DNA of 64,000 bases from Candidatus Omnitrophota bacterium. GTDB lineage: Bacteria > Omnitrophota > Omnitrophia > Omnitrophales > Aquincolibacteriaceae. The stretch's first letter is position 1. Each line of letters begins with the position of its first letter. The position numbers were made by a program, and so were the translations under genes. This document shows, in pieces, positions 18,649 to 55,979 of this stretch. The notes under the pieces are model-generated. The model did no database searches, was not told the origin of the DNA, and saw nothing but the letters and a program-made list of their open reading frames with translations. Location of the stretch: assembly GCA_022711115.1 (NCBI GenBank), contig JAKLFP010000003.1, positions 73,199-137,198 of the forward strand. Direction: 5' to 3'.

Positions 18649-18722
18649 GACTGCGGTCTCCTTTGAAGACAAAAAGGGCGGGAAGAACGAAATGCTCTCC
18701 CCGCCCGCCGTTGAAAGATCCT

Positions 18723-18815: not shown

Positions 18816-18830
18816 GGAAATCACCTCCCT

Positions 18831-18884
18831 CTTTTTAAAAATGAAAAGGGGGGAAACGGTCGAAAATGCGGACCGCTTCCCCCT
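18831..18884 (-). terminator. rho-independent terminator after PC4-like gene 18911-19429
   Basis: Minus-strand GC stem (gggggaagcggtc/gaccgtttccccc) followed by TTTTCATTTTTAAAAAG. Confidence 0.55.
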
Positions 18885-18910
18885 CTGTTTGCCGTTTAAA
18901 CCCAGCCGCT

Positions 18911-19429: not shown

Positions 19430-19514
19430 TGTCTTGTTTCTCCTTTTTTGATTTTTGAATTGGATTTTTCCTGCTATTCAAATGCCTCGTTTTTCCTGGG
19501 TTTCACCTCCCTTT

Positions 19515-19557
19515 CGAAAATAAAAAGGAGAAGCGGGTCGAAATGACCGGCTTCTCC
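19515..19557 (-). terminator. rho-independent terminator after PC4-like gene 19580-20083
   Basis: Minus-strand stem ggagaagccgg/ccggcttctcc followed by TTTTTATTTTCG. Similar in sequence to the 18831-18884 terminator. Confidence 0.6.
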
Positions 19558-19579
19558 GAAGTTGTCGTCCCCCGTTTTT

Positions 19580-20083: not shown

Positions 20084-20239
20084 TTGATGCTCCTTTCTTC
20101 GCTGAAAAAGCAAAAGGAGAGAAACGCAAACCGCGCGCATCTCTCCTTTGGTTGAAAACAAAATAAGCGGAGCACGCCAAACCGGCACGCTTCGCTTATT
20201 CGTCGGATTTACTTGAAGTTATGAAGCCCGAAACCGGGC

Positions 20240-22084
20240 CTAGACCGCTTTGTTTCTCGTGTTTTTCACCTCCTTCACGACCTCGAGCGGATTATCCGCC
20301 TTGACCGGGCCGAGTTTCTCTTTGAATTTTTCGAGAAGTTTCAGTTCTTCCACAAGCTCTTCGTCTTCGAAAATATCGGGGTTGTGGTTCGGCTTGAATT
20401 CGCCGCGATAAGCGGGGTGCCCGAAGAAATCGAGTTTCACGTAGTCGGTAAGAAGCGACGGACTTTTCCAGATCACGACCGCTTCCCCGCGCTTAAGGGC
20501 CCGGATAAGATCGGGCTCGATCCGGAAAGTCTGCCCCTCCCGGACCGAGCCGGTGCCGGTAAAGCCCTTGCCGAGGATCTTATCTTCCGTCTGATAAGTA
20601 GAAATCATGGTCGTGCGGGTGCCGCCGATCTTCGAGAATTTCTCGACCGAGATGGGGTCATCCTGCCTCAGAACGATCTTGATATTGGTATTTTCCATCA
20701 CCTGCTGTTGAAAGTTCGGAATGCCGCGGAAATAAAGATCCCCAAGCGACTGATGAAGGATCGTGACCGCAAAACCGCTCGCCCGGCATTTGTTGAGGAA
20801 ATCGATAAAATTAAGCTCCAAAAAACTCGAGGCATCGTCGATGAAAACCGGGAAGAAATGACGGCGGTGTTCCGGAATTTTGGCCTGGATGTGGCTGGAA
20901 ACGGCGCGGATATCCTGGATCACCATCCTCCCGAGACGGCGGGAGGTGTCCGCGTATTTCTGAAGATCGAGGGCGAAATAGCAGATCTGGTTTTTATTAT
21001 AGACCCTTAACAGATCGATTTCCGGACGGACCGTGTCCAGAAGGTCCGAAAACTCGCTCCGAGACGTGAGATAAAGGTCCGCCATGAGCCCGGAAAGGAA
21101 CTTCTGATTGTCTTTGAAGCTACTCACCATCTTTCCGATATCATCCTTGAGAACGGGATCCTGAGTCTCGTCGGAAAGCTTCGAGAGAGCGTCGACGTCC
21201 GTGAGATATGCGTGAAGATCCCGGAATCTCGTGCTTTTTTTCCGTTTCCGGGAAGCGATCGCGTTGAAAAGCGTAAGCGCGGCGCGCTCGGCCATCCTCC
21301 GGTAAAACTCCTCGCTCCAGACCATGCTGTTGATCAGTTTGTCTTTGAGTTCCGTGGGATTCCCCCTGAAAAGAGGGTTATAGGTATTGGATTTATCGGG
21401 ATGAGCCAGCGAGAAAAAGAAGAAGTCATCCCCGCGGTTTTTCTCTTTGACGATGTATTGGATCCGGTTTAGGAGCTCGAGATCCCCTTTCCCGTCGAGG
21501 ATAATAGCGCCTTTACCGCGTGCGATATCGTGGGCAAGCATGGGAAGGAGCACGGATTCGGTCTTTCCGGTCCCGGTGCTTCCCACCACTTCGCAGTGCA
21601 TTTGGCGCTGGTCGTTGGTGAGATAAAGAGGCTTGCCTCTCCTGAAACTTTCGCCGAGATAGACCTTGTGATAATCGGACGCGAGCCGGTTCCGGCGCAT
21701 GGTTCCCGGGGCAGGGTCGATTCTCCGGTCTTCGGACTTGAACTTCGAATCCTGAGTGAAATAGGCGAAAAGTATGAAAACGGGAAGCGTAGCGGCCGTG
21801 TAAACGCCGTAGAATAGCGCGAAGCGGATGCCGCCCTGCCAGTTCTGATTCACGAACCCATTCTGGAAAAGCAGGTTTATACCGTCAAGCAGCCGGCTTA
21901 AACCGAGGATCGCCCCTGCGGAAAACAGGACCGGGATGCCAAGCACCATTCTTTCGACCCGAGGTTTTCCGATCCTTGAAACGAGGAGTAAAAAACTCCG
22001 GGCGATCCCGAGCGGAACCGCGATGAATATTCCCGTGATCAATTTGACGAGAAACGGTTCTTGTCTTCCCGGAGGTTTTGTCAT
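20240..22084 (-). CDS. virD4: type IV coupling protein (VirD4/TraG/TraD family)
   Basis: N-terminal TM helices, Walker A VVGSTGTGKTESVLLP, ~610 aa, adjacent to the putative relaxase. Confidence 0.85.
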   Translation of the reverse strand: MTKPPGRQEPFLVKLITGIFIAVPLGIARSFLLLVSRIGKPRVERMVLGIPVLFSAGAILGLSRLLDGINLLFQNGFVNQNWQGGIRFALFYGVYTAATLPVFILFAYFTQDSKFKSEDRRIDPAPGTMRRNRLASDYHKVYLGESFRRGKPLYLTNDQRQMHCEVVGSTGTGKTESVLLPMLAHDIARGKGAIILDGKGDLELLNRIQYIVKEKNRGDDFFFFSLAHPDKSNTYNPLFRGNPTELKDKLINSMVWSEEFYRRMAERAALTLFNAIASRKRKKSTRFRDLHAYLTDVDALSKLSDETQDPVLKDDIGKMVSSFKDNQKFLSGLMADLYLTSRSEFSDLLDTVRPEIDLLRVYNKNQICYFALDLQKYADTSRRLGRMVIQDIRAVSSHIQAKIPEHRRHFFPVFIDDASSFLELNFIDFLNKCRASGFAVTILHQSLGDLYFRGIPNFQQQVMENTNIKIVLRQDDPISVEKFSKIGGTRTTMISTYQTEDKILGKGFTGTGSVREGQTFRIEPDLIRALKRGEAVVIWKSPSLLTDYVKLDFFGHPAYRGEFKPNHNPDIFEDEELVEELKLLEKFKEKLGPVKADNPLEVVKEVKNTRNKAV

Positions 22085-26967: not shown

Positions 26968-27231
26968 TTTAAGCTACCGCCTTTCACAAGAATTTGATCA
27001 ATGCTACCGGATACACCCAGCTCTTTCAGGAGCCGGAGCGTTCTTCGCAGAAACGTATTCGGAAATGATTTGCTTAAGGAAGGACGAAAAAGCCATCGAC
27101 CGCTTGGAGGCAAGATCCTTTAAAACCCGAAAATCCTCCATCGAAAAACTGAGCTGAACCTCAACCCATTGTCCCTCCATTCACCAATTACCTGCCCTTC
27201 CTTAAGATTGTTTTATCATCCAGCCGACAAC

Positions 27232-28332
27232 TTACGCTTCTGCCTGCCAAGAAACGACCTTATCATCAATAAGTGTTACAATACCGTTTCCGTAGAAAAA
27301 CTGAATCTGAGTTGCATTATTGGCATATGATTTCCGAACCAGATCAGGATTCCCAAGTAATCCCATGACCTGTCCACCGGTAAGACCTTCTCCCATAGCA
27401 GACCATTTCCGCTCAGCCGTTGTCAATTTGGGAACTACCGTCATTTTTTCGACGGGACCGTGATCCTTCAGGTAAGGCGCAAGGGCTTCCGGCGGAATTC
27501 GGGAGAGCATGTCCTCGGCAAATTGCGTTGTTTCAAGCACATTGGCGGGCAATTCTTTAACAACCTTAGCCTTGCCTGCCAATCCTTTTTTAACCACCCT
27601 TAAATGCTCCTTGGGGACACTATAGCCTGCTTTCTTCGCCTTGCGAAACCAGCGGTCAGCCGCTTCAAACTTATTGCGCATAACCTCAATAAGCCCAAGG
27701 CGATACATTGTGTCACCGTCATTGGGGTTACACAGCAATGCATTGATGAGATACTTGTGTGCCTTATCGTTATTTCGTTGCTCCGCAAAAATCATTGAGG
27801 AATATTTGTAAGCGAGAAAATGCCTTGGATTTTTCTGAATTGCTTGACCGTAATAAGTCAGCGCTTTTTCCTTGTTTCCAAGCTTGGATTCGACGATTCC
27901 CGCATAAAAATATAAATCCGCTTGATCAGGTTCAGCGGTCAACGCTTCATTAAGCTTCAAGGATGCTTCATCATATTTCCCATCCTTAAAAAGAATCATC
28001 CCTTCCTTAACCAAATTTTGAACCGACTGGGTAAGCGGCACTGGTTGCTGCCTTTTGCTGAACAAAATCCTATAATTATCTTTTACTGACCAAGCAAGAA
28101 GTCCTACCAGAAGCACAACCAGAACAATACCCCACCAGGTCAGGCAAATCCGAACGATAATGGCAAGCAACCCCAGCAAGGTCACAAGCCGTGCTGCCTC
28201 TCGAAGCAAACCGCCAACATGAGCGGCCACAAAAATGGTATTGATGGCAAGCCCAACTACAAAGAGAATGAGCCCCCACTTTAAAAGCCTCGTTTTCCAT
28301 ATTGATTTTTTCTTTATCTCGTTCTTCGTCAT
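27232..28332 (-). CDS. membrane protein with TPR repeats
   Basis: Three N-terminal TM helices followed by TPR-like repeats (ALKLNEALTAEPDQADLYFYAG..., ALTYYGQAIQKNPRHFLAYKY...). Confidence 0.6.
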   Translation of the reverse strand: MTKNEIKKKSIWKTRLLKWGLILFVVGLAINTIFVAAHVGGLLREAARLVTLLGLLAIIVRICLTWWGIVLVVLLVGLLAWSVKDNYRILFSKRQQPVPLTQSVQNLVKEGMILFKDGKYDEASLKLNEALTAEPDQADLYFYAGIVESKLGNKEKALTYYGQAIQKNPRHFLAYKYSSMIFAEQRNNDKAHKYLINALLCNPNDGDTMYRLGLIEVMRNKFEAADRWFRKAKKAGYSVPKEHLRVVKKGLAGKAKVVKELPANVLETTQFAEDMLSRIPPEALAPYLKDHGPVEKMTVVPKLTTAERKWSAMGEGLTGGQVMGLLGNPDLVRKSYANNATQIQFFYGNGIVTLIDDKVVSWQAEA

Positions 28333-28374
28333 AACTATTGCCTTTTATCTCTAATCACTAATCATAGCCCTTTA

Positions 28375-28743
28375 CTACTTCGTATATATTTCTTCTAAAA
28401 TTTTCCCGGTTTTAATATCAACTCGATATGTTGACTCCCCACCACTTGCCCAAAAATTTTCTTTTTTATCAACCCCAATACCAACAAAAAGATCCCTTCT
28501 GAAAAATTTTTTCCCTGTCCGCCATTCATCTGGGTCCTGAATTCGCCACAAAATTTCTCCCACGTCATTGACGCATACAATATTTCTATCGGGTGTCTTC
28601 TCACCCTCGGCTTTAAATCGCACCACAATATATTGATTCCCAACAACTAAGGCATCGCCGATTTCATGATCCATAGCAATGGTTCGACATGTTTCATTTC
28701 TTTTAATATTTAAATTATTTTTTTGAAACGAAAGATTAATCAT
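28375..28743 (-). CDS. hypothetical protein; candidate immunity protein for the giant protein's C-terminal domain
   Basis: 122 aa; its ATG overlaps the last 8 nt of the 4439-aa ORF. AT-rich. Confidence 0.4.
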   Translation of the reverse strand: MINLSFQKNNLNIKRNETCRTIAMDHEIGDALVVGNQYIVVRFKAEGEKTPDRNIVCVNDVGEILWRIQDPDEWRTGKKFFRRDLFVGIGVDKKENFWASGGESTYRVDIKTGKILEEIYTK

Positions 28744-31700
28744 TAAATATATCTCCTATTTCACGAAGGCGTTTAAACCAGTCGTCCTTAAGTTCGGATA
28801 TTATTTCGTATTGGTGTCCACCGCCAACACCATATGCATTTGAACCAGCAATACCATCCCGAATAAACACAGTATCTGTCGACCCAAAAACAACATCAGC
28901 AACATGCGTCGGCTCTTGTGGCAAAGACAAAATCTGTTTAATTTCAGCCGGACTCTTTCCCTCTATGACAGAGCGTCGTGTAATCCAGTAGCCTTTCCCT
29001 GTTGGATTGGACGAGCTTGGAACAAAAACCCTAACAAGAGGATCTCCATCCACAACATTGAAAGAATCTCTCACACCCTTTTCTGTAACAGCTTCAAATG
29101 GATCCCAAGGAATTTCATGTCCAGGACGTCTGACAAGATAATCGGCATTAACCTCTTGACCTTGCCGAGTAATATTTATATCGGTTACATCATCAACACC
29201 AATATACCGCCTTGAGTAGGCTTCGGCAACATCATCAATGTTATTAGCTTCTGATAGAAATTCACCCTTAAGGCCATTATTTCTAAAAAGACGTGTTAAC
29301 AATGAATCGGCAGCAACATCACCTTGGCGCCTCAATAGCTTCCCCACAAGATCTGCTATGCCAGTTTTTACCGCCGTAACACCAGCGCCTACTACGGTCT
29401 TAACTACGCCTCCAATCAATACAATATCTAGCGCGCGAAACAGCTCTGTCGCGGTGTTCAAACCAAGAGAAAGAATCTTTTTTCCCGCATCGGATAGATT
29501 GCCGTCATTGATATCACGCCAAGCTCCCGTCGCATCATCCCACATATTATCCAGCCGATCGCCAATCCGAATGGCATCGATAAATCCTTTTACAACGGAT
29601 CTTAAGAGCTCCACGGATGCTGTCTGTGGAAACAGCAATATGTCTTCCAGCAAACTGTCTGTTTCCGGTTTGATATAGTCGAAAATTCTGTCAACTACGG
29701 CATCTGCTTGATTGGCTATCTCATGCCTTGTTATGTTCAGGTCCTCAAGCAATGAACGATGAGTATCCGGAAGATCTGTTATCCTCTGATTATCAATCAA
29801 TGTTTCGGCAACGTTCCGCATGGCAACAGGGTCTCCGTCGAGCAGATGCTGCTGGAAACCCGGGTCCATATGAATTTCATAGCCGCCTGAAATATTGACG
29901 CCGTCAAAGTGCTCGACAAATTGGATAGATCCTGCCGCTGTATCGCCTAAATCGGTCTGGTAATCTATAAACAATGTCTGCTGAACGGCTGATACTTGCC
30001 CCGCAGAATAATAAGCCGTGTCGCCCGTGTCCCAATTTCTCGCAACGCCGGACTGGATCGTAAAGGATCCATTCGGGTTATCCACTAACACAAGCGGCTG
30101 TGTCTCTGTGCCGAAAAAGCTGACCGCATTCCCCTGCGCATCAATCATGTCAACATTTACTACCTGCGCATCGCGAACGGTTAACGTCATGCTTTCCGTC
30201 CCATTGGTGAATGTCATTTCGCCGTTGACCATAACATACCGCCCTTGCTCATCCATCCTGTACTGGCCGCTTTCCGTGTGACTGCCAAACTGCCTGGCAA
30301 GGATCTGTGTTTCATCTTCGTTTAAAACAAATTTGTTATTCCCTACGGTATATTCGTGGACAATCGTGCCGTCCTCAAGCTGGCGCACCGTGAAATCCTG
30401 GGCTGCCTGCCGGGCCCTGAAATAATCTTCAATGTTCTGTCCCGTCGCATAAATTGACTCTACGGTATCCCGACCGAGGATCTGGACAGCATACATCTCA
30501 AAAACATCGAAAATATCCCCTCCGTCCCGGATTTTGCTTGCCAAACTGACCAATTGCATGAGGTAAAGCGATTTTTGGTATTCGGTAGCGCCTTCGCCTC
30601 CCAAGGTAAGAACATTTTTAATGGATTCCTGTAAAGCACCGGCAATCCCTCCAAAAAAGCGGGTAATGGCATTTCCGGAAGATGTCTGATTCGTTAAACC
30701 TTCTATTCCTCCGACAATGCCCCTCAGGCCTAGGGATATCAGCAATGGATTAACATCCAGAACATCAGCCAGCCAGTAAGCACCCATACTGACGAATCCA
30801 CCCAAGGTCTCCCTGCTAAGGAGAGCTTCTTTTAGCGAGTCAAGAATTGAGAAGGTGCCCGGGCTAAGTGCGCTATTAACAATATGACCTATACTTGCCG
30901 CAATTGGATACCCTATGAGTGCTGTAATGCGCGGATCGAGGCCGAGGGAGCGGCCGACGAGTTCGAGTCCGCCGAGTGTCAATTGCTGAGTAAAACGAGG
31001 GAAAATACCGGGAAGTTCGGTTCTGAGATTGAAGGCAGGATCAAAAAGACCGGCAAGGGATGCCGTCACACCAAGAGAAATCGCCGACGTGATCGGCGGC
31101 GGCAAATCCAGTTTGAGACCCATTTCGCTGACACCCTGAAGCAAATACATCTGCATCCCGGAACGAAGAAATTCCGACATACCTCCGCCAAGTCCGATCA
31201 CCCCGCCTGAAACAAAAGCCCCCGCAAGACGTGCCATCGTGGATTCAATACCGAGTCCTTCCAGACCTTTCGAAACCGGCATATTGATGGCCGCGGCGAT
31301 CATGGTCCGGCCGATCGTCTGCCCAAGCGTCAGTGTTTGCGGCACAAGCGCTCCGGCCGGGTCGAACATGATCTTGATCCCGTCGACAACATAGTTCCCG
31401 ATGTTCGTGATCCCGGCCCCAAGCGCTCCGAAATTTCCGGTGACCATATCCGTAAAGAACGTGAATCCCTGTTTCAGAAATTGCCCGGCATGCGACACGC
31501 CCTCCCAAATCGTGTTCCCGAGTGACGTGAATCCGTTCTGGATTGACTGGAGGAGCCCGGCATGCTGGATAGAACTGAGCGCCATGGAGAATCCCTGGAC
31601 CGCGAAGTTGACCACGCTTGCCGCGATCGCCACGATCCCGGCCACCATGGCCGCGTAACCGATGATCTTCCCGAAAGTCGGGCTGATAAAAGACACCACA

Positions 31701-34700
31701 ACGCTCGCCACCGTCAAAGCAACCGAGGCGATCGTGAACCAGAAAATGAGCAATGGGAAAAAAGATCCACGGACCCGCATAGCCGTTTTGTCATCAAGAC
31801 GTTTTGTCGTGATCGACTGGTCCTTAAAAACCACAAGATGCCCTGTCCCGTCCCCGGCATCCCAGCTTTTTGAAAATTGCGGCAAAGTGACATGGACCAG
31901 CGTGCCGTCCGCTCCCTGATTGGTTTCAAAATAAGACACGGCGGTGGGTGTCACTCCTGTGATTACGGCAAAATGTTCCTTTCCGATATGCACAATAACA
32001 CGCAGACCACAGGCCGCGTTTTCATCGATTTGAAGCGCCGGACACGCGGACGCATAAAGCGATCTGAGATCAGCGAGCGAGTACCGAACACCCGTGATGT
32101 CCGCTCCGTGGATCTTCGCGGCACGTTCCATGGCAAAAACGGATATTAAAAGATCGCCTTCGGCAAAACGATTGATCGTCCCGGTCAGAATGTCCACAAG
32201 CACTGACTCACGCCCCAGCGTTGTCATGGGAACATGAATGCCCCGGGACGAGAGCATCTCTTTTAAAGAAAGAAACGCGGATTGTCCGAAGTGAAGATCC
32301 CGGCTCCCAAGCCATTGCAGAATCGCGGTCACATCCTCCTGATTGAGATCCACGGCCTCGGAAGGATCAAGCCGAAGTGATTGAACAAGTGTCGCGCGTG
32401 CTGTCGGATCATTGGCAGCGGCAAGATACTGACTCAGAAAAGTCTGCACCTGGCTGATCATCGCGGCTTTTTCATTTGTCCTGTTCAGAAATTCAGGCGA
32501 ATTCCTGATCTCGTTGATGGTTCGGCTGAGATCAATTGCCTCCATCGCTCCAAATCTCGCGATCTCGGTATCGACTTCCGCGTCCGAAGGGTCCCGGCCC
32601 AAAAGCCGCCGGTAAATATCCGCAAGGACCGGCGCGACTTCGCGCTCGAGGATATCGTGAAAAACCGCCTGCTCCTGCGCGGCAAGGTCCGTGATTTTCT
32701 GCGCGGTCGCGTTTTCAATCTCAGATTTTTTCTGCGCAATCAGCAAGGGGATGGTGGCAATCTGCTCGGGCTGGATTTGTTCCAGCAACTGCGCTTTTTG
32801 ATTTCTGGTCGCGTTGATCATGGCGACAACGCCGGGGACCTCATAACGTTCTTCATGGCATTTCCTGCCGAATCCCAAAAAAACACTTTTACAGACCTTG
32901 ACATTCTGAAAGCGCTGGGATTCTAACTGATGAATATAGGCATCAAGCGCCGCAAGGGCACTGGCCACTTCCTGTTTGATATTGGCCTGCGCCACTTCTT
33001 CCTGTTCGGCCAATTGCCGTAACGCATCGAATTTGACCTGCGCGATCTGCTGACGGGATTTCGCGGCTTCGGCTTCAAAATCAGCGCGTGCTTTGACCAG
33101 GGTCACTTTCACAAGATACAAATCATTCGGATTGGCACAGCCGCTATCCGGGCAGCCATATTCGTGGACATAAAGAAGTTCTCCGTCACTGGCAAACGTT
33201 TCTCTCGGCTTGCCTCGATCATAAAAGGTTCGCACACCGCTTAAATTTTCAGAATAAACGATCTGGTTTTGGCTGTCATAGACCGTGATTTTTTCGAGGT
33301 CGCCGCCGGGTTTGTTGGGTTCATAGGCTTTTAAGAAAGCGCTGTAGGCATCGGCTGCCCCCTCAGGCACAGACAGGATCAAATGCATCCCGTGAAACAC
33401 CGGGTCGGTGATCCCGGAAAGACTCGTGTAGACCGCGCTTTCCGTAGCGGAGGAAAAAGAACTGCCTCCCGTCTGTTCACAACCTTCCCCCTTTTTTAAA
33501 TATTCATTCCCGAATAAATACCATGTCTGATTGGCCGCACTTGCATTCCTCACGTTCCCCGCCCCGATACCTTCCAGCAGAGAAAGAATTTCATTTCCCG
33601 CCGAAGAAAAATAGGGATCTTTGACCGCCATGGCGACATACTGGCCCGGTTTGAGATTTATTAAAAAATTTTTCAGCAGGATGCGGTCACCGGTGGATGC
33701 GAATTGACCGGAGAGGACCTTCCATTGATTGAGAGATTCATCATACGTGCTGATCAAAAATCCGGGACTTCCCTCGCGCTTCCCGATTATTGCGTCCGGA
33801 TCTCTCATCACAATCGTATTTCCCGCCTCAAGCGTCAGTGCTTTCGGAAACGGCACGCCGTTAAAATCAATCTGCTTATGATGCAAAAGATTGTACCCCG
33901 TGAGATTGCCTGAAGTATCCGCTTGATAAGTGAACTGCCAGGATTCGCCGTTGGGAGAATCGATCTTGAGTAAATACCCATAAGCGTCATAACTGTAGTA
34001 CGTTCCTTCGCTCTGGAACATACTTCCCGTGTAGCTACCCGTCTGATCCTGCAAAATCGTTATTTGAAAATCGTTTGCCGGAAAATTCGCCGAAAAAAAA
34101 GCGCCGTCGGCCAAACGTCCGCGGACCGGCAGATAATTCTCAATTTCAAGAATAAGCCCGTTGTCAAACTGTATCTGCCCGCTTTTGATTTTCCGGTCAT
34201 CATCCAGAACAACATTCACGGCTTTATCCCCTGAAGGAGTGTCGATTTCCATCAATCCGTCGTCTCCTTTTTTGATCCGGAAACCATCCCTGGATTCATA
34301 TCCCACCCAGGTGACTGCACGCAGGTCCGCCGCATTGAACACATGAGTCCATTTATAATCGTGAGCGACGGCAAGCGGATTTTGAGGCACTACGGAATAA
34401 TCCAAATAAGCATACAGATAGCCATCCCGGGTGAGGTGTTTTTTCAGGTTGCCGTTTTTGTCGTAATACCAGGTGGTCCCGTCGTGATCCGTGACTTGAG
34501 TTTCGTCGTCTGAAAACTTATAGCTGGTACTTTGCAGCACGCGGTTTTTATAAAAAAGCTCGGCTCCGATCAGTGCTTCATCCAGGTAACTGTAAGTCGT
34601 CGTAATGCCCGCCGCGCTGATGGATTGCAACAATTTTCCTCCTTGGAACTTTCGGAGGTCGCCCGTGAGGTCGTCTTTGATGACGGTAATCTCATTCCCC

Positions 34701-37700
34701 TGGCCGTCAAACTCATAGCTGAATTCGTAAATTTTTCCATCTGATTGCGTGATTTTTCTGAGGGCGCCGTAACGGTAATCCAAATTCCCAACGGCACTAT
34801 TGGCACTGGAAGAGCCTTGAACGGTTGTTTGGGAAGAATTCTCAGCGGGCAAATATTCATGAACAGTCCCGTCCGGCAAGGTCACGCGGCTTACATTTTC
34901 TCCGTCAAGATCAACACGACTTCCGTCAAAACGTTGAAAATAGGTGATGTCGCCCGGGTGTTGGCCGTCCCCTGTTTGATAAAGCAGGGCCGGGGCATCG
35001 AACCATTCAGCAAGGACAGCGTAATCAGGAGGTGTGTTTGACGCAATTTCAGCACCCACTGCCGTTAAATGATCTGATTCGATTTTTAAGGTGCTGATTT
35101 CCTGAGCGGTCATGCCGGATTGGGTTTCCCAGAAAGAGTGAGGCCCGCTCATTCTTTTTAACGAAATAAATTCAAGATCCGTCACGGTAAAGGAACCTTG
35201 CTTGCCGATACCTTCCTCGGTAGGTACCGGCTCGACTGTGATCTCAGTTTCCTCAGCGCTCAGAACTGGCAGAGGAATCCACAGAAACCTACCGCCACTG
35301 GTTTCATAGGTAAATAACGTATTTCCATTTTTTATTTTTACCACAAAGGGCTGCTCCCAGGTCACATCCAGACCCGGATGAATACTGATCTGAAGCAAGT
35401 TGTAATCGATAAGTGAAACAGGATGATTCCTATTCATGATATAGAGCCCCATTTGGCTCGTGGTATCTTGATAAAGAAATTTGCAGGAAGCTTCGGAAGC
35501 ATTGCCTGCCCCCCATATAAACTCTCCCGGTTTCAAGGCGCCGACTTGGAAACCTCCCATGCCTTCTGCCAACGATAAAACATTACTGCTTTTTGAGAGA
35601 AAATAGGGTTTCACATCGCTGACATAATGACTAAACCAATTTCCAAAAAGCAATTCAGCCAGGGAGCAAGTCCCCTCATGCACCTGAGTCGTCCCATAAA
35701 CCCACTCCGAGTAGCGAAAATGCACCGTCGTTCCTGTGATCTGACCGTCGAGATCCCGTTCATAGGACAAAACATCGAGCCGGTTATTTTCATCCCAGAC
35801 AATCGACTTGATCGCTCCATTTTGGTAGATGACTCTCGGGCCTCCATTGGGGTAATCCACATACTGCTCTTGCGTCTGGTCAATCGTCATCACCGTGCCG
35901 TCCTTCAACGTCAGGATCGCACGCAGTAATCCGCCGTCATCGGCAAATTCGAGATCGCTGAATGTCCCGGCACTCGTGGTGATGGACGAAATTTTTCCGT
36001 TCTCATAGGCAACCATGTTTCCATCCTGGATCATCTTCTGAAGTTTTCCGTCCGGACCAAAGACACGCCTGCGGTCATTGTCCTGAATATGGAAGGAACG
36101 GATTTCTCCGCGAAGATTTTCGTCATAATAAAACCGGCCTGTTTCCAGTTTCCCTCGCGCGAGATCGATCACAAAGGAGGCAAGCCCGTTTTCAAACAAA
36201 ACCGTCCTCCCATTTTTAAAGATCCATTTCACGAGTTTTCCGTCCTGAAAATACTGAATTCCGCCATCGGCGCGATTCAACGTGCCGCTGATGAGTTTCC
36301 CATCCGAATCGATCGTGAAATGATCAAGAGTCTCTATAGCGGTCCTTAGATTGCCACTGGCGGAACTCGATGCGATTTTGTTGAGGATGATTTGCTGAAG
36401 AGCCGGCGCATTGGTGCCAAGCATGGAAACCCAATCCAAACGATCTGAAGTCCTCACTTTGAAAGCAGAAAGAGGGCCGAGATAAATATTCCCGCTGACT
36501 TCCGAACCATCGGTGGATTGTATGACTGTTGCTAATTCGTACATCATCCCATCCGTAGGCTTGGAAACAGGGATATGGACATACTGCCAGCCGTGCTTCA
36601 AAGGTTCGGTCACAAAAATATTGCCGGTCCCTTTGAATTCGAATTTAAGACGGATTTTTTCAGGGGTATCCTCTCCGACACGGACGGGAATGGACAAAAA
36701 ATCATACGGTCCCAAATCCAAGGCATGATATCTATTCCAAAGACCTACCGGCGCATACCGGTATTTTGCGTCAAAAATCACATGCCGAACGGTACCCACC
36801 TGAGGATCAGAGACAGGCATGTTTCTGCAAAAACCAGCACCCGGCGTATAAAAATCTCCTTGGGAATTTCCCGACAACTCATAAATGCTGAATTGATAGG
36901 ATTCCAAAAGAGACCTGCCCAAAGCCGATCTGCCGGGAAGCAGAAGATATTCTTGAAGACTCATGCGGCGCAAAGCATCGCCTTCGTTAAATTCAATCTC
37001 CGTATGATGAAAATTTCCGGCCGCGGTCAGATAATTAAAAACAGAGCCGATTCCGTATTCCGGATCGGAAAGGGTCGGAATAAAATTTGCTACTTTAACA
37101 AGACCGGCGGAAGCTCCATCCGGCAAACTCGCGCTGCCGGTGTAAAGGGAAGCCATGGCCTGATGAAAATTGGGCGGCGTTGGCAACATTCCGGAGGCAG
37201 GAGGACTTAAATTCAACTTGATCGATTGATACACAGAATCAAAACGTGTTTTCAGATTTTCTTCTTCCAGATAGTTCTGAAAATATGTTTGGCTTGTCTT
37301 CAAAAGGGAAAGAATAAACGAAGCCTGGTCCACTCCAAAATATTGCGTTGAAAAAACAGGTTCTTGAACTTGAATGGATTGCCCTGTTCCCGGATCTGTT
37401 TTTGTGACCGTCTGCATTTTGATAGCATCGATAAACCCGTCAGAAGTCCGGATTTGCGGAAACGCGGCTTCAAGATTCTTGAGAAACTGCAGCGTGTAAT
37501 GCGGCGCCAAACCAAAAGCCGAAGCGATTCCATAGATCGATCCAATATTGGTATAGCGAATGTCATCGGCTTCTGCCGCATCAGGCAGACCGATCTTTCC
37601 TTCATAACCTTGTCCGGGATTATCTCCCGCCGAAAGAAGTCCCGGAATATTATTTCGCTGAACAAATTCCGCCTGGGCATAAAGAAAATTACGGAGTGCC

Positions 37701-40700
37701 GGCTCCAGTTCCGGATATTTTGTTTCATCCACATGGATGAGCGGCCAGAACATTTGAAAAGCACCTCCATCATAGGGGGAAGCGATATTCCATTCCGCGC
37801 CATCGCTGGATCGATAGTTGCGAAGCGTCACGCTCAGATTATAAAAAGCATCCTGATATTGAGGAAAACGGGAAACCAGCCAAGCCAGGCCCGGTCTGAA
37901 TTCATCGAAGACGCGGTCCATATGGCCCACAAAATCTCCCTGAAACCGATAAGCCTGATAGAAAAGATGTGCGTCTGCATCATAAAAAGCGGCATACCCG
38001 GGTTCTTGAGCTGTCAAAATCGCATTGGAACGATTCAGGATCTGATCCCGGTAAACCGCCATACCCGCATCAAGCGTCAGACCCTGCAAAGCCCCTATCA
38101 CGCTCGCAAGACTCACTGATAGATTAACATTATCTCCCAATCCCACTTCATTGAAACGACGCTGATATTTGTACACAAGACGCGTCATGCCTGTCGGATG
38201 GCCTTCGCCATCAAGAACCGGTTCGATGGTTGGGGCGATCGTAAAGAAAGCGACCATTCCGTTCCATCCTACCTGCTCTTGTATTTCCTGATAAACCGCT
38301 AAAAGCGCATTCAGTTTTTCAAAAGCTTGGATCCGTGAAATCTTTGACGTCTGGTATTCCCCTGTCGCAATAGCCGCAAGTATTTCCGCCCAAAATCCAA
38401 TCAGTGTCGCTTGACTGTAGTCTGCCTGCTGTTCATTCAAACCGTTGTAATTATCCACGGGAAGACCCGTCGGCGTATGAATCCCTTTACCGTTTAAGAA
38501 ATAATCAAGCTGCGTTTCGATGAGATCATTCCTGTAAGCGGTTTCGGTCGGCGTCAAAGGCTCTGGAAGGATAGCTGCCGGCGTTTGAACGGGTTCGGGT
38601 AATGTGCTTGAAAATTCTACGAACTGTCCGGAAGGCGTGATTTGTTTGACCACCTGATTATTTTCAATGAAGTATTGCATGCCGTCGTTGAAAAGTATTT
38701 CTCCGGAATAAATAAAACCATCCTGGTCGACGGTCAAAGACCGGAGTTCGGCATCCTGCAAAGTGACTTTCGGCACAAAAAATTTCCCGTCCGGCAGCAC
38801 CGGAACTTCTGTCAAATCCAGCTGCACGGTTTTGTACTGCCCATACCGGATCGGTTTGCCATTGTTGAATTCAATCCATGCACCGTCCGGAAGATCGATT
38901 CTCAATAGTTCGGTTAACTGACTTGTCAAACCCTCTGCATTCAAAAACTTGATGACTCGGTAGACTTTTCCGTCATTTGTCGTGATAGTATCCGGGCGCT
39001 GCGCTCCTAAAAAATTCACATAAGTGGTTTTATTCCCCGATGCATTGGTTCGCTCGATTAACTGAAAATTTTGATAAACTTCTTGCGAACCGTCGGGATA
39101 AAACCTTTTAAATCCCGTCAGATTTTGACCATTCCAAATAAGATTCATTAATAAACTACCGTCATCCAAACGGATATCCGCCAAAGTTCCGGCTGTAACA
39201 CGAAAAGATGTCCCGCCTTTTAAGCGAACAGCTGAAAGTTGTCCGGTGGCGTCATAAACCTGTTCGATCTGGGATTCGCCCTCTTCAGACACAGAAACCG
39301 ATAAAAGACTGTGATCGGCAGCCAACTGAGTTTGGACATGAAACAATGCTCCGGATTGACTGGCATAGGACACTGGAAGCCCGTTTTGGAGACGCAGCAC
39401 TTCTCCTTTTCCCGAAACTGTTTCCTTCATCACGCCGGAGATATCGTATTCGATTGAAACGGTCAGCTTATCCTGCAAGGTATCCTTTATCGAAGGATAA
39501 TAGTCCGGATCACGTTGAATGGTGGATATTGGAATTATTTCATTCGTTGCGGACCACGTCACAGAGCTGAGAACAGAACGATAGCCGCTGACGTCTGTCC
39601 CCTGCCGCAATGTGGCTATTTCATAATGAAAGATATTGCCCGCTTCATCCCTGTAGGTTTCCAGAAATCCGTTCTGATAAAGGATTGCCGTCCCATCGGT
39701 TTTCTTGACCCACAGGGGTTTCCCATTTGAACTGTAGCGGCTCGTTGTCCCGTCCTCTTCGGCGACAAGCATAGATAGAACTTGCCCGGAATCATTTAAT
39801 TCATAATTGAATTTAATCTTCTTGTTATCAGCCGTCTGCACATAAGCAATACGGCCATTCGAATGATAAACAGTTCTTTCACCTTGGGAATTCACTCCAT
39901 AAACAGCTTTTCCATTTTGGTAAAGAAGCTTATTACCGTTACTGAAAACGAGAAGACCGCTCACAAGATTTTGAGCGGCATCAAATTGGGGCAAATAAAG
40001 CGTGTAACTGTTCGGGTTTTCAATCGCGACAAGACTGGCATTGGCATATTTAAGGATCAAACCGTTGGCAGCAGTCATCGTCATAAGATCTTGCGGGAGC
40101 GTTGGGATGGCCGGCATGGGCGGCAGCGCAATTTCAGGTTGATCCAAAGTAACGGCATATGCCGCAAAAGCCGGCAAGTTCCCCACTATGGTTTCGACCA
40201 TGAGACGATTCTCACCAGGTTGAAGCTCCCAGGACTCTTGATGCTCGGCTCCTTGAATGGTATAGCGAAGAACATAATTCGGATCCGTTGTTCTTTGATC
40301 CGACAGGAACTGAATCGGAAAAACATACCGGATCGTTGAAGAGGCAGCAGCAATGTTTCCCGCCTGGTCGCGAACCTGGCAAGTGATTGTTTTGAAGCCT
40401 TCTCCGGCAGGCAATGTCATCACTTTCGACGGAACGAAAGCGGTCCAATCCGTCCATTGCAATCCGTTATCTGTGGAGAACCGAATATCCTTTAAAGAAA
40501 CGGCGTCTTGGGCATTCACATCCAAACGGACTGTGAGATTATTCGTTTCCGCATCACCGTTATTGATTCGTAGGGCCGTCAACGGCGGATGGGTGTCGAG
40601 TATGACATCAAAGAACGCTTCGGCCTTGTTCCCAAAAATATCGCGACTTTGAACGGTAAGAACGTTACTGCCTTCCGTAAGCATTCTGGTTTCAGTACGT

Positions 40701-42055
40701 TCAACGCTATCAATCTTATAACGAAGTTCGTAAATCGATTGATTCGTGACAGTCACCGCTGGAAGAAACTCGATAATGGGCGGCGTGGTGTCTAAAACCT
40801 GTGTCCCATTATTATAAAATTCTTCTATAGAACCTTCTTCATAAAGAACCCGGTAACCGGTGACGAATTGTCCGTTCAGAATCGGGGTTATGGAATAATC
40901 CGCGTCCAGATCACTGACACGGTCTAATGCGTGAGCCAACCCGAGCGGTAAAAATGCACCGCGGCCATAAGAGGAAGAAGTTGTTTTGATGCTGTAATCG
41001 CCCGCCGTGGCATTGGTAAATTGCGGGTCCGTCACAAGATTGCCACCTCTTTCTTCGGCAACGGCGGGCGGTGTCGCGCTTCCGTAATAGGTGCCATGCT
41101 CCACATTATTGAAAAAGGTGTTGTTTTGAACCGTCGCGTATCCCCTGCTCGGTGTCCGGCCCCAACAAAATTCATAAATCGACTGAAAGGTGCTATTTGT
41201 AAAAATATTGTTCTCCACAACCGGCGTTCCGCCGTTCAGAATATTGACTGCGATATTGTTCGCTATAAACGTGTTGTAGCGGATGAGGGTTCCTGCTTTG
41301 GGAAGTTGAATGGCCAGATGATTGCCCTGAAAGAAATTTTCTTCGATGAGAAGATCGGTTCCAGACCAAACATAAATGCCATAATCCCGGTTATCAACAA
41401 AACGGTTATTCCGGATCTTCACGTGATCGGCTTGGATGCGGATAGCGCTTGCGGGATATCCGGCATAAGGACCGCCGCCGGTGATGGTTAGATTTTCGAT
41501 ACGGTTATTTCCTAAGACCGTGATGATATTTGTTTGAGGCTGATTATTTCCGCTGATAATGGTCCGCCGCGAATCTTCCCCTTTTAAATTTATACCGTTT
41601 TTTAAAGTCAAGTATTCACGATAGATTCCCCGATGCAGATACACCACGTCGCCGGCATTTGCATTGTTAATTTCATTTTGGATCGATTCCCCTTCATAGA
41701 CATAGTGAATGGTTGTCCCGTCAGAAGCGATCTCTTGCCTTAATTTTCCATCTGGCCCATAAGTTTTGCCCAAATCTGATGGCGGGATATTGCCCGTGGT
41801 ATTTCCCGCGGAAGACAGAGGCATGCTTTGAGCTGCTAGAAAATCAAACGCCGTTGAAGAGACCCGGCTTACGGGTAAATGAGCCGATGATGCAGAGGAT
41901 ACTTGGGTTTCGGCCTGAACCGGCCGTGACGCATATTGATCGTAAAGATTTGTTTGAGCCGCAAGGATCGTTTGATCCCAGACAAAAATAATGACCGTAA
42001 AAAAAGCCGTGACTTTCAACCAGCCGGAAAATCTTTTCTGGCGCATCATAACCAA
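28736..42055 (-). CDS. giant (4439 aa) secreted multidomain protein: signal peptide, right-handed beta-helix repeats, YD-type repeats, coiled coil, DUF4214-like segment, internal TM hairpin, (alpha/alpha)6-like domain, C-terminal putative toxin module
   Basis: Uninterrupted 13.3-kb ORF. N-terminus MVMMRQKRFSGWLKVTAFFTVIIFVW; PbH1-like NNRFVDNRDYGIYVWSGTDLLIEENFFQGNHLAIQL...; YD-like TTYSYLDE..., WYYDKNGNLKK, FYYDENLRGEI; LADIYRRLLGRDPSDAEVDTEIARFGAM; TM hairpin FFPLLIFWFTIASVALTVASVVV...IIGYAAMVAGIVAIAASVV. Confidence 0.85.
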   Translation of the reverse strand: MVMMRQKRFSGWLKVTAFFTVIIFVWDQTILAAQTNLYDQYASRPVQAETQVSSASSAHLPVSRVSSTAFDFLAAQSMPLSSAGNTTGNIPPSDLGKTYGPDGKLRQEIASDGTTIHYVYEGESIQNEINNANAGDVVYLHRGIYREYLTLKNGINLKGEDSRRTIISGNNQPQTNIITVLGNNRIENLTITGGGPYAGYPASAIRIQADHVKIRNNRFVDNRDYGIYVWSGTDLLIEENFFQGNHLAIQLPKAGTLIRYNTFIANNIAVNILNGGTPVVENNIFTNSTFQSIYEFCWGRTPSRGYATVQNNTFFNNVEHGTYYGSATPPAVAEERGGNLVTDPQFTNATAGDYSIKTTSSSYGRGAFLPLGLAHALDRVSDLDADYSITPILNGQFVTGYRVLYEEGSIEEFYNNGTQVLDTTPPIIEFLPAVTVTNQSIYELRYKIDSVERTETRMLTEGSNVLTVQSRDIFGNKAEAFFDVILDTHPPLTALRINNGDAETNNLTVRLDVNAQDAVSLKDIRFSTDNGLQWTDWTAFVPSKVMTLPAGEGFKTITCQVRDQAGNIAAASSTIRYVFPIQFLSDQRTTDPNYVLRYTIQGAEHQESWELQPGENRLMVETIVGNLPAFAAYAVTLDQPEIALPPMPAIPTLPQDLMTMTAANGLILKYANASLVAIENPNSYTLYLPQFDAAQNLVSGLLVFSNGNKLLYQNGKAVYGVNSQGERTVYHSNGRIAYVQTADNKKIKFNYELNDSGQVLSMLVAEEDGTTSRYSSNGKPLWVKKTDGTAILYQNGFLETYRDEAGNIFHYEIATLRQGTDVSGYRSVLSSVTWSATNEIIPISTIQRDPDYYPSIKDTLQDKLTVSIEYDISGVMKETVSGKGEVLRLQNGLPVSYASQSGALFHVQTQLAADHSLLSVSVSEEGESQIEQVYDATGQLSAVRLKGGTSFRVTAGTLADIRLDDGSLLMNLIWNGQNLTGFKRFYPDGSQEVYQNFQLIERTNASGNKTTYVNFLGAQRPDTITTNDGKVYRVIKFLNAEGLTSQLTELLRIDLPDGAWIEFNNGKPIRYGQYKTVQLDLTEVPVLPDGKFFVPKVTLQDAELRSLTVDQDGFIYSGEILFNDGMQYFIENNQVVKQITPSGQFVEFSSTLPEPVQTPAAILPEPLTPTETAYRNDLIETQLDYFLNGKGIHTPTGLPVDNYNGLNEQQADYSQATLIGFWAEILAAIATGEYQTSKISRIQAFEKLNALLAVYQEIQEQVGWNGMVAFFTIAPTIEPVLDGEGHPTGMTRLVYKYQRRFNEVGLGDNVNLSVSLASVIGALQGLTLDAGMAVYRDQILNRSNAILTAQEPGYAAFYDADAHLFYQAYRFQGDFVGHMDRVFDEFRPGLAWLVSRFPQYQDAFYNLSVTLRNYRSSDGAEWNIASPYDGGAFQMFWPLIHVDETKYPELEPALRNFLYAQAEFVQRNNIPGLLSAGDNPGQGYEGKIGLPDAAEADDIRYTNIGSIYGIASAFGLAPHYTLQFLKNLEAAFPQIRTSDGFIDAIKMQTVTKTDPGTGQSIQVQEPVFSTQYFGVDQASFILSLLKTSQTYFQNYLEEENLKTRFDSVYQSIKLNLSPPASGMLPTPPNFHQAMASLYTGSASLPDGASAGLVKVANFIPTLSDPEYGIGSVFNYLTAAGNFHHTEIEFNEGDALRRMSLQEYLLLPGRSALGRSLLESYQFSIYELSGNSQGDFYTPGAGFCRNMPVSDPQVGTVRHVIFDAKYRYAPVGLWNRYHALDLGPYDFLSIPVRVGEDTPEKIRLKFEFKGTGNIFVTEPLKHGWQYVHIPVSKPTDGMMYELATVIQSTDGSEVSGNIYLGPLSAFKVRTSDRLDWVSMLGTNAPALQQIILNKIASSSASGNLRTAIETLDHFTIDSDGKLISGTLNRADGGIQYFQDGKLVKWIFKNGRTVLFENGLASFVIDLARGKLETGRFYYDENLRGEIRSFHIQDNDRRRVFGPDGKLQKMIQDGNMVAYENGKISSITTSAGTFSDLEFADDGGLLRAILTLKDGTVMTIDQTQEQYVDYPNGGPRVIYQNGAIKSIVWDENNRLDVLSYERDLDGQITGTTVHFRYSEWVYGTTQVHEGTCSLAELLFGNWFSHYVSDVKPYFLSKSSNVLSLAEGMGGFQVGALKPGEFIWGAGNASEASCKFLYQDTTSQMGLYIMNRNHPVSLIDYNLLQISIHPGLDVTWEQPFVVKIKNGNTLFTYETSGGRFLWIPLPVLSAEETEITVEPVPTEEGIGKQGSFTVTDLEFISLKRMSGPHSFWETQSGMTAQEISTLKIESDHLTAVGAEIASNTPPDYAVLAEWFDAPALLYQTGDGQHPGDITYFQRFDGSRVDLDGENVSRVTLPDGTVHEYLPAENSSQTTVQGSSSANSAVGNLDYRYGALRKITQSDGKIYEFSYEFDGQGNEITVIKDDLTGDLRKFQGGKLLQSISAAGITTTYSYLDEALIGAELFYKNRVLQSTSYKFSDDETQVTDHDGTTWYYDKNGNLKKHLTRDGYLYAYLDYSVVPQNPLAVAHDYKWTHVFNAADLRAVTWVGYESRDGFRIKKGDDGLMEIDTPSGDKAVNVVLDDDRKIKSGQIQFDNGLILEIENYLPVRGRLADGAFFSANFPANDFQITILQDQTGSYTGSMFQSEGTYYSYDAYGYLLKIDSPNGESWQFTYQADTSGNLTGYNLLHHKQIDFNGVPFPKALTLEAGNTIVMRDPDAIIGKREGSPGFLISTYDESLNQWKVLSGQFASTGDRILLKNFLINLKPGQYVAMAVKDPYFSSAGNEILSLLEGIGAGNVRNASAANQTWYLFGNEYLKKGEGCEQTGGSSFSSATESAVYTSLSGITDPVFHGMHLILSVPEGAADAYSAFLKAYEPNKPGGDLEKITVYDSQNQIVYSENLSGVRTFYDRGKPRETFASDGELLYVHEYGCPDSGCANPNDLYLVKVTLVKARADFEAEAAKSRQQIAQVKFDALRQLAEQEEVAQANIKQEVASALAALDAYIHQLESQRFQNVKVCKSVFLGFGRKCHEERYEVPGVVAMINATRNQKAQLLEQIQPEQIATIPLLIAQKKSEIENATAQKITDLAAQEQAVFHDILEREVAPVLADIYRRLLGRDPSDAEVDTEIARFGAMEAIDLSRTINEIRNSPEFLNRTNEKAAMISQVQTFLSQYLAAANDPTARATLVQSLRLDPSEAVDLNQEDVTAILQWLGSRDLHFGQSAFLSLKEMLSSRGIHVPMTTLGRESVLVDILTGTINRFAEGDLLISVFAMERAAKIHGADITGVRYSLADLRSLYASACPALQIDENAACGLRVIVHIGKEHFAVITGVTPTAVSYFETNQGADGTLVHVTLPQFSKSWDAGDGTGHLVVFKDQSITTKRLDDKTAMRVRGSFFPLLIFWFTIASVALTVASVVVSFISPTFGKIIGYAAMVAGIVAIAASVVNFAVQGFSMALSSIQHAGLLQSIQNGFTSLGNTIWEGVSHAGQFLKQGFTFFTDMVTGNFGALGAGITNIGNYVVDGIKIMFDPAGALVPQTLTLGQTIGRTMIAAAINMPVSKGLEGLGIESTMARLAGAFVSGGVIGLGGGMSEFLRSGMQMYLLQGVSEMGLKLDLPPPITSAISLGVTASLAGLFDPAFNLRTELPGIFPRFTQQLTLGGLELVGRSLGLDPRITALIGYPIAASIGHIVNSALSPGTFSILDSLKEALLSRETLGGFVSMGAYWLADVLDVNPLLISLGLRGIVGGIEGLTNQTSSGNAITRFFGGIAGALQESIKNVLTLGGEGATEYQKSLYLMQLVSLASKIRDGGDIFDVFEMYAVQILGRDTVESIYATGQNIEDYFRARQAAQDFTVRQLEDGTIVHEYTVGNNKFVLNEDETQILARQFGSHTESGQYRMDEQGRYVMVNGEMTFTNGTESMTLTVRDAQVVNVDMIDAQGNAVSFFGTETQPLVLVDNPNGSFTIQSGVARNWDTGDTAYYSAGQVSAVQQTLFIDYQTDLGDTAAGSIQFVEHFDGVNISGGYEIHMDPGFQQHLLDGDPVAMRNVAETLIDNQRITDLPDTHRSLLEDLNITRHEIANQADAVVDRIFDYIKPETDSLLEDILLFPQTASVELLRSVVKGFIDAIRIGDRLDNMWDDATGAWRDINDGNLSDAGKKILSLGLNTATELFRALDIVLIGGVVKTVVGAGVTAVKTGIADLVGKLLRRQGDVAADSLLTRLFRNNGLKGEFLSEANNIDDVAEAYSRRYIGVDDVTDINITRQGQEVNADYLVRRPGHEIPWDPFEAVTEKGVRDSFNVVDGDPLVRVFVPSSSNPTGKGYWITRRSVIEGKSPAEIKQILSLPQEPTHVADVVFGSTDTVFIRDGIAGSNAYGVGGGHQYEIISELKDDWFKRLREIGDIFND

Positions 42056-55900: not shown

Positions 55901-55979
<79 letters not shown>

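Follow-up and report, generated by a model that had tools for sequence, protein, structure and literature searches.

A giant Omnitrophota protein with a predicted NADase tip and a DUF7957 partner as a probable polymorphic toxin system

A candidate toxin/immunity locus in Omnitrophota

Within a 64,000-nucleotide (nt) stretch of a Candidatus Omnitrophota metagenome-assembled genome (GenBank assembly GCA_022711115.1, contig JAKLFP010000003.1, positions 73,199 to 137,198), hereafter the window, a gene for a protein of 4439 amino acids (aa) ends in what is probably a toxin/immunity cassette. As judged from sequence and structure models, the C-terminal tip of the protein would consume NAD+, and the 122-aa open reading frame (ORF) that overlaps its last codons is the putative cognate immunity gene. 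The locus as a whole is probably best explained as a polymorphic toxin system on a giant exported Omnitrophota protein. It appears to combine every feature of polymorphic toxins, in the sense of Zhang, Aravind et al. 2012, that can be sought computationally: the predicted toxin domain lies at the extreme C terminus of a multidomain protein with a signal-like N terminus; the C terminus varies on a conserved body among close relatives; the immunity gene stands immediately downstream and covaries with the toxin; and one toxin domain occurs on unrelated delivery scaffolds.

The giant gene (28736 to 42055, minus strand) is real and uninterrupted, as an initial annotation made from the letters of the window had stated, and comprises 4439 codons from a TTG start. 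Public gene calls choose ATG starts 2 to 3 codons further on and hence a protein of 4437 or 4436 aa, and the NCBI record (HOW59141.1) is named only “right-handed parallel beta-helix repeat-containing protein.” All features of the giant and its cassette lie on the minus strand of the window. DNA loci or contigs with relatives that were compared are labeled L0xx, and their proteins are labeled P0xxx.

The C-terminal tip resembles TNT-like NADases

The tip comprises the last 150 aa (aa 4290 to 4439; 28739 to 29188). An AlphaFold model from the single sequence was useless (pLDDT 33.8); an AlphaFold2 model from a 21-sequence alignment was confident (pLDDT 90.8, pTM 0.84), so that the distinct C terminus of about 150 aa singled out in the initial annotation is a real folded domain. 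Foldseek comparison of this model with the PDB ranked first Tne2 (6B12_A; E 5.6e-4, probability 1.00, TM-scores 0.53/0.66, 18% identity), second the Serratia C-terminal toxin Rhs1-CT (6XTD_A; E 2.6e-2, probability 0.98), and third Tse6 (4ZV0_A; E 0.12, probability 0.84), and the remaining matches had probabilities of at most 0.13. All three are TNT-like NAD(P)+ glycohydrolases (NADases), and in each case the solved structure includes the immunity protein (PMC10539506).

Sequence conservation within the tip family points in the same direction. Across a 64-sequence alignment, one Gln is invariant (64/64), an Arg is conserved in 62/64, and one position is always Trp or Phe (64/64); in the window, these are the Q of GGGHQYE, the R of VRVF, and the W of GYWI. 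The catalytic Gln equivalents of known enzymes are TNT Gln822, Tne2 Gln387, and Tse6 Gln413, alongside an essential aromatic residue (PMC6398120). The best PDB match of the tip-family profile is again Tne2 (E 0.13), in an alignment that spans its GGVQQ motif and sets the conserved Gln of the family against it. The palm-domain fold (in the top three Foldseek matches) and the Gln and aromatic residue of TNT-like NADases are thus present, but the Pfam threshold is not reached: PF14021 (TNT) was matched at E <= 1e-3 by 3 of 83 relatives, and hhalign against a TNT-annotated fragment gave a weak alignment (E 0.014). One relative has a UniRef name as a DUF4237 protein. We conclude that the tip is a predicted, divergent TNT/Tne2-like NADase, which lies outside Pfam TNT by score.

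The best structural and profile match, Tne2-Tni2 (6B12), is a type VI secretion system (T6SS) effector/immunity pair of Pseudomonas protegens, within a wider TNT-like NADase group that also includes the TNT of CpnT, Tse6/Tne1, and Serratia Rhs1-CT. The Gln of GG-x-Q, the aromatic residue, and the Arg are conserved between Tne2-Tni2 and the locus of the window, as is the arrangement of a C-terminal toxin with an immunity gene directly downstream; however, sequence similarity is marginal, and the giant is neither a PAAR nor a T6SS protein.

Since the ART-type fold is common to TNT-like NADases and the Q-Y-E of the window resembles a [QE]-x-E motif, the tip might be read as an ADP-ribosyltransferase (ART) with a protein or RNA target in place of a simple NAD+ glycohydrolase, a reading that would leave the immunity and the swap described below unchanged. 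We consider it improbable: an ART-type ExE site is disfavored by the alignment, in which the Gln is invariant but Glu two residues further on is found in just 36/64 sequences, and all three structural matches are characterized NAD(P)+ glycohydrolases (PMC10539506).

In an exhaustive phmmer search that covered 1.84 billion representatives, 217 relatives of the tip reached E <= 1e-3; among the 150 of these that were listed, the median distance from the end of the domain to the C terminus is 5 residues. Carriers among 83 full-length relatives include PT-TG (10 proteins), RHS, DUF4280 (PAAR-like), DUF637 with PT-VENN (CdiA-like), and LXG proteins. The same tip is also borne by P0077, an otherwise unrelated RHS protein of 4789 aa.

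DUF7957 as the putative immunity protein

The putative cognate immunity gene (28375 to 28743, minus strand) encodes a 122-aa protein assigned to DUF7957 (PF25857), recorded at NCBI as HOW59140.1, “hypothetical protein.” Its ATG lies inside the final codons of the giant gene, in the 8-nt overlap (ATGATTAA) already seen in the initial annotation, and GGAG is found about 10 nt upstream. The PF25857 tag is carried in precomputed tables by the cluster of this ORF and by all of its relatives; hmmscan of the ORF against a local Pfam copy returned nothing at E <= 10, and the model may be absent from that copy. Homology among seven aligned DUF7957 members is clear.

The overlap had been taken for the layout of a toxin/immunity pair, and this reading holds up on both points by which it could be judged: the C terminus matches NADase toxin domains rather than a non-toxic or structural one, and the downstream ORF is linked to it. 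DUF7957 is encoded directly downstream of the toxin domain in 8/8 independent contexts (the window, L001, L003, L008/9, L010/11, the Legionella lytica chromosome L012, L014, and L015). The two genes overlap in most of these and are separated by an 80-nt gap in L014. Where the C-terminal module is of another type (L016 and L013), DUF7957 is missing. The protein has no hydrophobic segment and no export signal; the former is as expected if it acts in the cytoplasm, where NAD+ is. Comparison of DUF7957 with solved proteins, including the NADase-immunity chains in the PDB, gave no sequence similarity, and a literature search on DUF7957 found no paper.

Two further arrangements occur in the compared loci. 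In L001 (3150 to 4320) and L003 (2268 to 2855), a cassette of NADase, DUF7957, and a 57-aa protein has a transposase gene of the Y1 (IS200/IS605) type just 3' of it, which may have a role in cassette mobility; in L001, an orphan second DUF7957 copy follows the transposase gene. On the Legionella lytica chromosome (CP071527; L012, 3155 to 4638), two short toxin fragments are adjacent, each followed by a small ORF. One fragment is annotated as Pfam TNT, and the other belongs to the family of the window and is followed by DUF7957, so that the region resembles a row of orphan toxin/immunity cassettes.

A 3.7-kb cassette is replaced in a sister strain

The toxin tip is part of a longer variable C-terminal module, which the initial annotation had confined to the last 150 aa and which in fact extends over about 724 aa (aa 3716 to 4439; 28739 to 30910). 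Its two parts, a linker submodule and a tip of about 340 aa that is made up of a helical pre-toxin region and the NADase domain, recombine independently.

The unit of exchange is delimited by P0173 (4305 aa), a member of the giant's own 90% cluster. The L016 contig on which it lies keeps the gene order of the window (GpsA, FadL, the giant, then regulators, LacI, and VirD4). P0173 has ~100% protein identity to the window giant up to aa 3715 and ~20% beyond. At the DNA level, L016 1 to 15152 aligns with window 46064 to 30912 at 98.9% identity, L016 15153 to 18127 has no similarity to window 30911 to 27204, and L016 from 18128 onward (to 26932) is syntenic with window 27203 to 18332 at 74 to 77% identity. 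The break falls precisely past the codons for the motif GLDPRITALIG. The exchanged unit is therefore a 3.7-kb cassette (27204 to 30911, minus strand) with zero DNA similarity to the sister strain, rather than the whole gene; it takes in the codons of aa 3716 to 4439 and the two genes that follow.

The difference between 98.9% identity on the right and 74 to 77% on the left places the cassette at the edge of a far more divergent region that bears type IV secretion system (T4SS) genes; the left end of that region lies past the end of the L016 contig. No att-like repeat of the motif-coding DNA longer than 12 bp was found elsewhere in the window, so site-specific integration is unsupported. No further copies of the toxin or immunity gene were found elsewhere in the window. 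A terminator-like hairpin lies just past the cassette (27150 to 27168, minus strand), where conservation with the sister strain resumes; terminator-like sites are no more numerous than expected from shuffling.

Further C-terminal variants on the conserved body occur in L013, L017, and L018. The L013 giant, from a more distant member of Omnitrophota, has a body with 53% identity to that of the window over aa 444 to 3938. The sister strain and L013 share a second kind of module, type B (L016 15153 to 18127; L013 9959 to 12462; 41 to 43% identity between the two), for which Pfam and PDB sequence searches were empty. Its motifs FAHSGNF and GAAHSDF resemble a serine-hydrolase nucleophile elbow and His, and reading them by eye suggests a hydrolase- or lipase-like module. 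In both contigs the partner gene encodes a TPR-like protein (42% identity, E 2e-55) with a signal-like N terminus, and module and partner are probably a second toxin/immunity type. Compartment-matched immunity would be expected to show just this pattern, with an exported partner for the hydrolase-like module and a cytoplasmic one for the NADase. In the L016 cassette, a gene for a 101-aa protein with multiple transmembrane segments follows the TPR-like gene.

Modularity is nested as well. L003 combines the linker submodule of L018 (42% identity) with the ~340-aa tip of the window (31% identity) and DUF7957. The third gene of the window cassette (27232 to 28332, minus strand) encodes a 366-aa membrane protein with three N-terminal hydrophobic helices and TPR repeats. 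Of these helices, the first and second are homologous to the 57-aa proteins, likewise membrane proteins, that are encoded after DUF7957 in L001 and L003 (E 4e-8 and 3e-14, respectively). Cassettes of the Omnitrophota type thus have this TPR protein as a conserved third component.

A transmembrane hairpin, a Gly-rich segment, and a boundary motif precede the module

The stretch ahead of the variable module is the best-conserved part of the protein. A transmembrane hairpin (31610 to 31750; aa 3436 to 3454 and 3464 to 3482 in a Kyte-Doolittle scan) is preceded by the basic stretch KRLDDKTAMRVRG and lies within the interval of ~31600 to 31790 to which two adjacent helices had been assigned by the initial annotation; it is kept in L013, L019, and L018. 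A hydrophobic segment rich in Gly and small residues follows directly (30944 to 31609; aa 3483 to 3704), with 15.8% Gly compared with 8.2% for the body and a density of small-xxx-small motifs twice the background. The Gly-rich region had been put at about 1000 aa, which was overstated, as aa 3483 to 3704 alone are Gly-rich. Hairpin and Gly-rich segment together have 72% identity to L013 (aa 3430 to 3770) compared with 53% over the whole alignment and, by analogy with known effectors, may act as a membrane-insertion or translocation domain. A weaker hydrophobic helix in the same scan (aa 4205 to 4229) was ruled out as a third transmembrane segment, being charged and amphipathic in L001 and L003.

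The demarcation motif GLDPRITALIG (30911 to 30943; aa 3705 to 3715) closes this stretch. A scan of the metagenome collection with the back-translated pattern S[LI]GL[DH]PRITALI found only 3 loci, all in giant-like ORFs whose tails diverge past the motif; a metagenome scan with the hairpin alignment found no loci. The L018 giant has 26% identity to that of the window, yet it retains the transmembrane hairpin ~240 aa ahead of the motif, and its tip is yet another hydrolase-like one.

The constant body of the giant

The constant body comprises aa 1 to 3715. The N terminus is signal-like (41948 to 42055), as the initial annotation had it, with a basic n-region, hydrophobic aa 15 to 33, and then ILAA-Q, according to a Kyte-Doolittle scan and reading of the sequence. 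Several of the domain assignments made by eye for the remainder are borne out by profile searches. A right-handed parallel beta-helix of the pectate-lyase/NosD-like type (40973 to 41683; aa ~125 to 361) matches Beta_helix (PF13229) with E 1.6e-17 at aa 125 to 326 and NosD (PF05048) with E 1.1e-8. An (alpha/alpha)6 beta-1,2-glucanase-like domain (37415 to 38137; aa 1307 to 1547) matches PDB 8XUJ with E 2.4e-15 and PF10091 weakly; 8XUJ is the beta-1,2-glucanase EeSGL1 (PMC12102758). The YD/RHS-type repeats (33926 to 34738; aa ~2440 to 2710) are weak yet real, with summed E of 2.5e-6 (PF05593) and 1.7e-5 (TIGR01643), and reach E 2.3e-12 in the L013 homologue; these repeats had been correctly recognized, but no canonical Rhs core lies beside the toxin. 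An ILEI/PANDER-like domain (33509 to 33694; aa 2788 to 2849) is borderline, at E 5.9e-6 and 27.1 bits (cut-off, 27). Of the Ig-like regions that had been proposed, a weak match alone was recovered (Big_13, E 0.064), and the proposed DUF4214-like segment (LLGRDPS) was not detected with Pfam, nor was PT-TG (DDATGAW...). No internal repeats were found within the giant.

A domain of ~190 aa lies right before the hairpin (31781 to 32368, minus strand; aa ~3230 to 3425) and has 68% identity to L013. A C39-peptidase-like identity for aa ~3250 to 3400 arose by eye from HFGQSAF ... HFAVITGV, which is papain/C39-like with Ser replacing Cys; Pfam and PDB profile searches did not support it.

A proposed mechanism and the points against it

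If the locus works as a polymorphic toxin system, the giant would be exported by Sec through its N-terminal signal and would reach the cell surface as a displayed or anchored protein, where the carbohydrate-active (beta-helix and beta-1,2-glucanase-like), ILEI-like, and YD-repeat parts could engage the envelope of a neighbor, be it a rival, a host, or prey. Next, the hairpin and the Gly-rich segment would insert into the target membrane and bring the C-terminal module across, by analogy with the transmembrane domains of Tse6-type effectors (PMC7773334), after which NAD(P)+ of the target cytoplasm would be exhausted by the NADase. Inside the cytoplasm of the producer and its siblings, DUF7957 would neutralize the NADase by binding to it, and recombination at the conserved motif would allow toxin/immunity cassettes to be traded between strains. 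The proposed delivery route is tentative, and we rate it as possible rather than probable. An extension of it, which we think unlikely, is that in these ultra-small Omnitrophota the giant family forms a contact-dependent delivery device complete in itself, with no need of a dedicated secretion system, in which the hairpin and a glycine-zipper-like segment drive swappable effector modules (NADase, hydrolase-like, and others) through the membrane of prey or a rival. GLDPRITALIG would then be a recombination boundary and perhaps a processing site too, and the divergent T4SS-bearing element, which starts at the same breakpoint, might carry the cassette along.

Several observations weigh against this account. 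The delivery steps are ones that we infer, and a search of the giant and the scanned neighboring genes found no outer-membrane translocator and no type V, VI, or VII secretion marker. Transmembrane topology is ambiguous: by the positive-inside rule, the basic residues before the first helix would leave the 3400-aa N-terminal part cytoplasmic, which conflicts with the signal peptide. NADase activity of the tip is predicted from fold and motifs, and the TM-score of the Foldseek match is moderate. All sequences derive from metagenome assemblies; the version in the window was assembled independently in several projects, and both module types are found in more than one assembly, which makes chimeric assembly unlikely. 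Finally, the toxin's relatives include many short proteins that stand alone (184 to 211 aa) and are paired with DUF7957, and such pairs could be toxin-antitoxin-like rather than delivered effectors.

The last point leads to a reading in which the giant is mainly an adhesin or polysaccharide-degrading protein and the NADase and DUF7957 form an intracellular toxin-antitoxin or addiction-like module that is not delivered. Besides the carrier-free pairs, the carbohydrate-active enzyme (CAZyme)-like domains in the body of the giant and the fact that no delivery apparatus was identified would agree with this, and we nevertheless give it little credence: the tip domain is fused to the extreme C terminus of many exported carrier types (RHS, LXG, PAAR-like, and CdiA-like), and its swap for a hydrolase-like module with an export-signal partner fits delivered effectors that act in differing compartments.

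A further counterpoint is that the C terminus alone has no match in Pfam (even at E <= 10), in PDB sequences, or in a word-indexed protein search. Its lack of Pfam and PDB sequence matches would also suit a C terminus that is a non-toxic structural domain, with a small ORF that is unrelated or overlaps spuriously. That account is scarcely credible given the high-confidence NADase-toxin fold, the linkage in 8/8 contexts, and the joint loss of the pair in the sister strain.

Comparison with known toxin carriers and Omnitrophota giants

As a polymorphic toxin, the giant would be comparable in design to Rhs and CdiA proteins, and it differs from each. WapA of Bacillus subtilis is a Sec-exported Rhs/YD-repeat toxin. 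Serratia Rhs1 has exchangeable units of an NADase C terminus and its immunity gene (PMC10539506). With the Rhs systems the giant shares a big repeat carrier, YD repeats, a motif-demarcated C-terminal toxin, and exchange of C terminus and immunity gene by recombination in the conserved part. Rhs toxins have a core/cage domain with a DPxGL aspartyl-protease motif right before the toxin. However, the Rhs core (PF03527) has no match in the giant, and the DPxG[LW] motif is absent across the whole protein; the YD repeats are set ~1000 aa N-terminal to the toxin, with an Ala/Glu/Gln-rich stretch (taken for a coiled coil in the initial annotation), the unassigned domain, the transmembrane hairpin, and the Gly-rich segment in between, and the demarcation motif is GLDPRITALIG.

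CdiA is likewise a very long exported filament-type protein in which a motif (VENN) opens the variable C terminus and immunity is encoded just downstream, and its bipartite C terminus, with an entry part and a toxin, parallels the nested modularity of the cassette. Neither a TPS domain, FHA repeats, or PT-VENN nor a CdiB-type transporter was found in the giant or the Pfam-scanned neighboring genes, and in their place the giant has the internal hairpin. The giant also has no Pfam match to PAAR, VgrG, Hcp, MIX, or LXG/WXG. In prePAAR/Tse6-type effectors, the effector's own hydrophobic helices are implicated in NADase transfer across the target cytoplasmic membrane; these helices are N-terminal, Eag-chaperoned, and loaded on the T6SS spike (PMC7773334). 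Those of the giant, by contrast, lie ~270 aa ahead of the variable module in a protein with a Sec-type signal, and chaperone and spike are absent.

Giant proteins of Omnitrophota have been proposed to serve in prey attachment and cell wall degradation (West-Roberts et al. 2023, bioRxiv 10.1101/2023.11.21.568195). These proteins come from the same phylum as the giant of the window and share with it extracellular domains of the carbohydrate-active or attachment type, RHS-like repeats, and transmembrane segments. The giant of the window is smaller (4.4 thousand aa compared with >10 to 80 thousand aa), lacks SecA_DEAD, has few transmembrane helices, and has no adjacent type II secretion system or pilus locus. 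The 12 of 27 matching passages of the preprint that were viewed include none on a swappable toxin end paired with an immunity gene, and a term search of a further paper on Omnitrophota giant proteins found no passage on toxin/immunity ends. A literature search joining Omnitrophota with polymorphic toxins found a single paper with both terms, on an unrelated subject.

GC content and gene neighborhood

The initial annotation had described 27.2 to 44.3 kb as an AT-rich island. This is true in part but not for the region as a whole. The GC content of the giant gene is 0.483, compared with 0.496 for the window and 0.479 for the right flank; low GC is confined to the tip (NADase domain, 0.424), the intergenic region upstream (0.362), and the two genes downstream (DUF7957, 0.36; TPR gene, 0.451).

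A T4SS/conjugation-like cluster (5512 to 22084, minus strand, with 15552 to 18726) encodes VirB10/TrbI, VirB9/CagX, VirB8, a VirB4/TraC-like ATPase, and VirD4, accompanied by RadC, an amidoligase, a class II glutamine amidotransferase, and helix-turn-helix (HTH) regulators. Its GC content (0.534) is above that of the rest of the window, and no relaxase or integrase was identified in it. With VirB4, VirB8, VirB9, VirB10, and VirD4 homologues 6 to 23 kb downstream of the giant and in the same position in the sister strain, the giant might be a substrate of this T4SS, like the effectors of the bacteria-killing T4SS of Xanthomonas. Such a role is very improbable: the giant has a signal-like N terminus and far exceeds known T4SS substrates in size, an XVIPCD-like C-terminal signal was not found in the C terminus (for which Pfam was empty), and a cluster with RadC, amidoligase, and HTH regulators is typical of a conjugative element.

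Elsewhere in the window, the outer-membrane protein that adjoins the giant is of the FadL type, and PADLOC defense models had zero matches. A tRNA-Met gene adjoins an IS481-type transposase/integrase gene with rve and HTH domains (55901 to 57206), a 922-aa ORF (50829 to 53597, plus strand) has no Pfam match, and a 798-aa protein (61516 to 63912, minus strand) consists almost entirely of HEAT/PBS-lyase repeats.

Implications for Omnitrophota

Omnitrophota are ultra-small, uncultured, and suspected to be predatory or host dependent. To our knowledge, the function of their very large surface proteins has never been demonstrated. The toxin fold of the locus described here is already known; what is new is the putative role of DUF7957, the carrier architecture, the GLDPRITALIG boundary, and the occurrence in Omnitrophota. 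A Pfam domain of unknown function, DUF7957, can be assigned a putative role in NADase immunity from its genomic linkage. The carrier runs from a signal peptide through a CAZyme/YD body to a transmembrane hairpin and Gly-rich segment, a motif, and a variable module, and GLDPRITALIG adds a new demarcation motif for polymorphic toxins. With type V, VI, and VII markers all absent, the route into target cells may be a different one. For one family of giants, the locus offers a concrete function, predicted from sequence comparison and modeling, as a carrier of exchangeable toxins whose cassettes are replaced at the strain level. At least one Omnitrophota “giant protein” thus looks like a toxin-delivery device.

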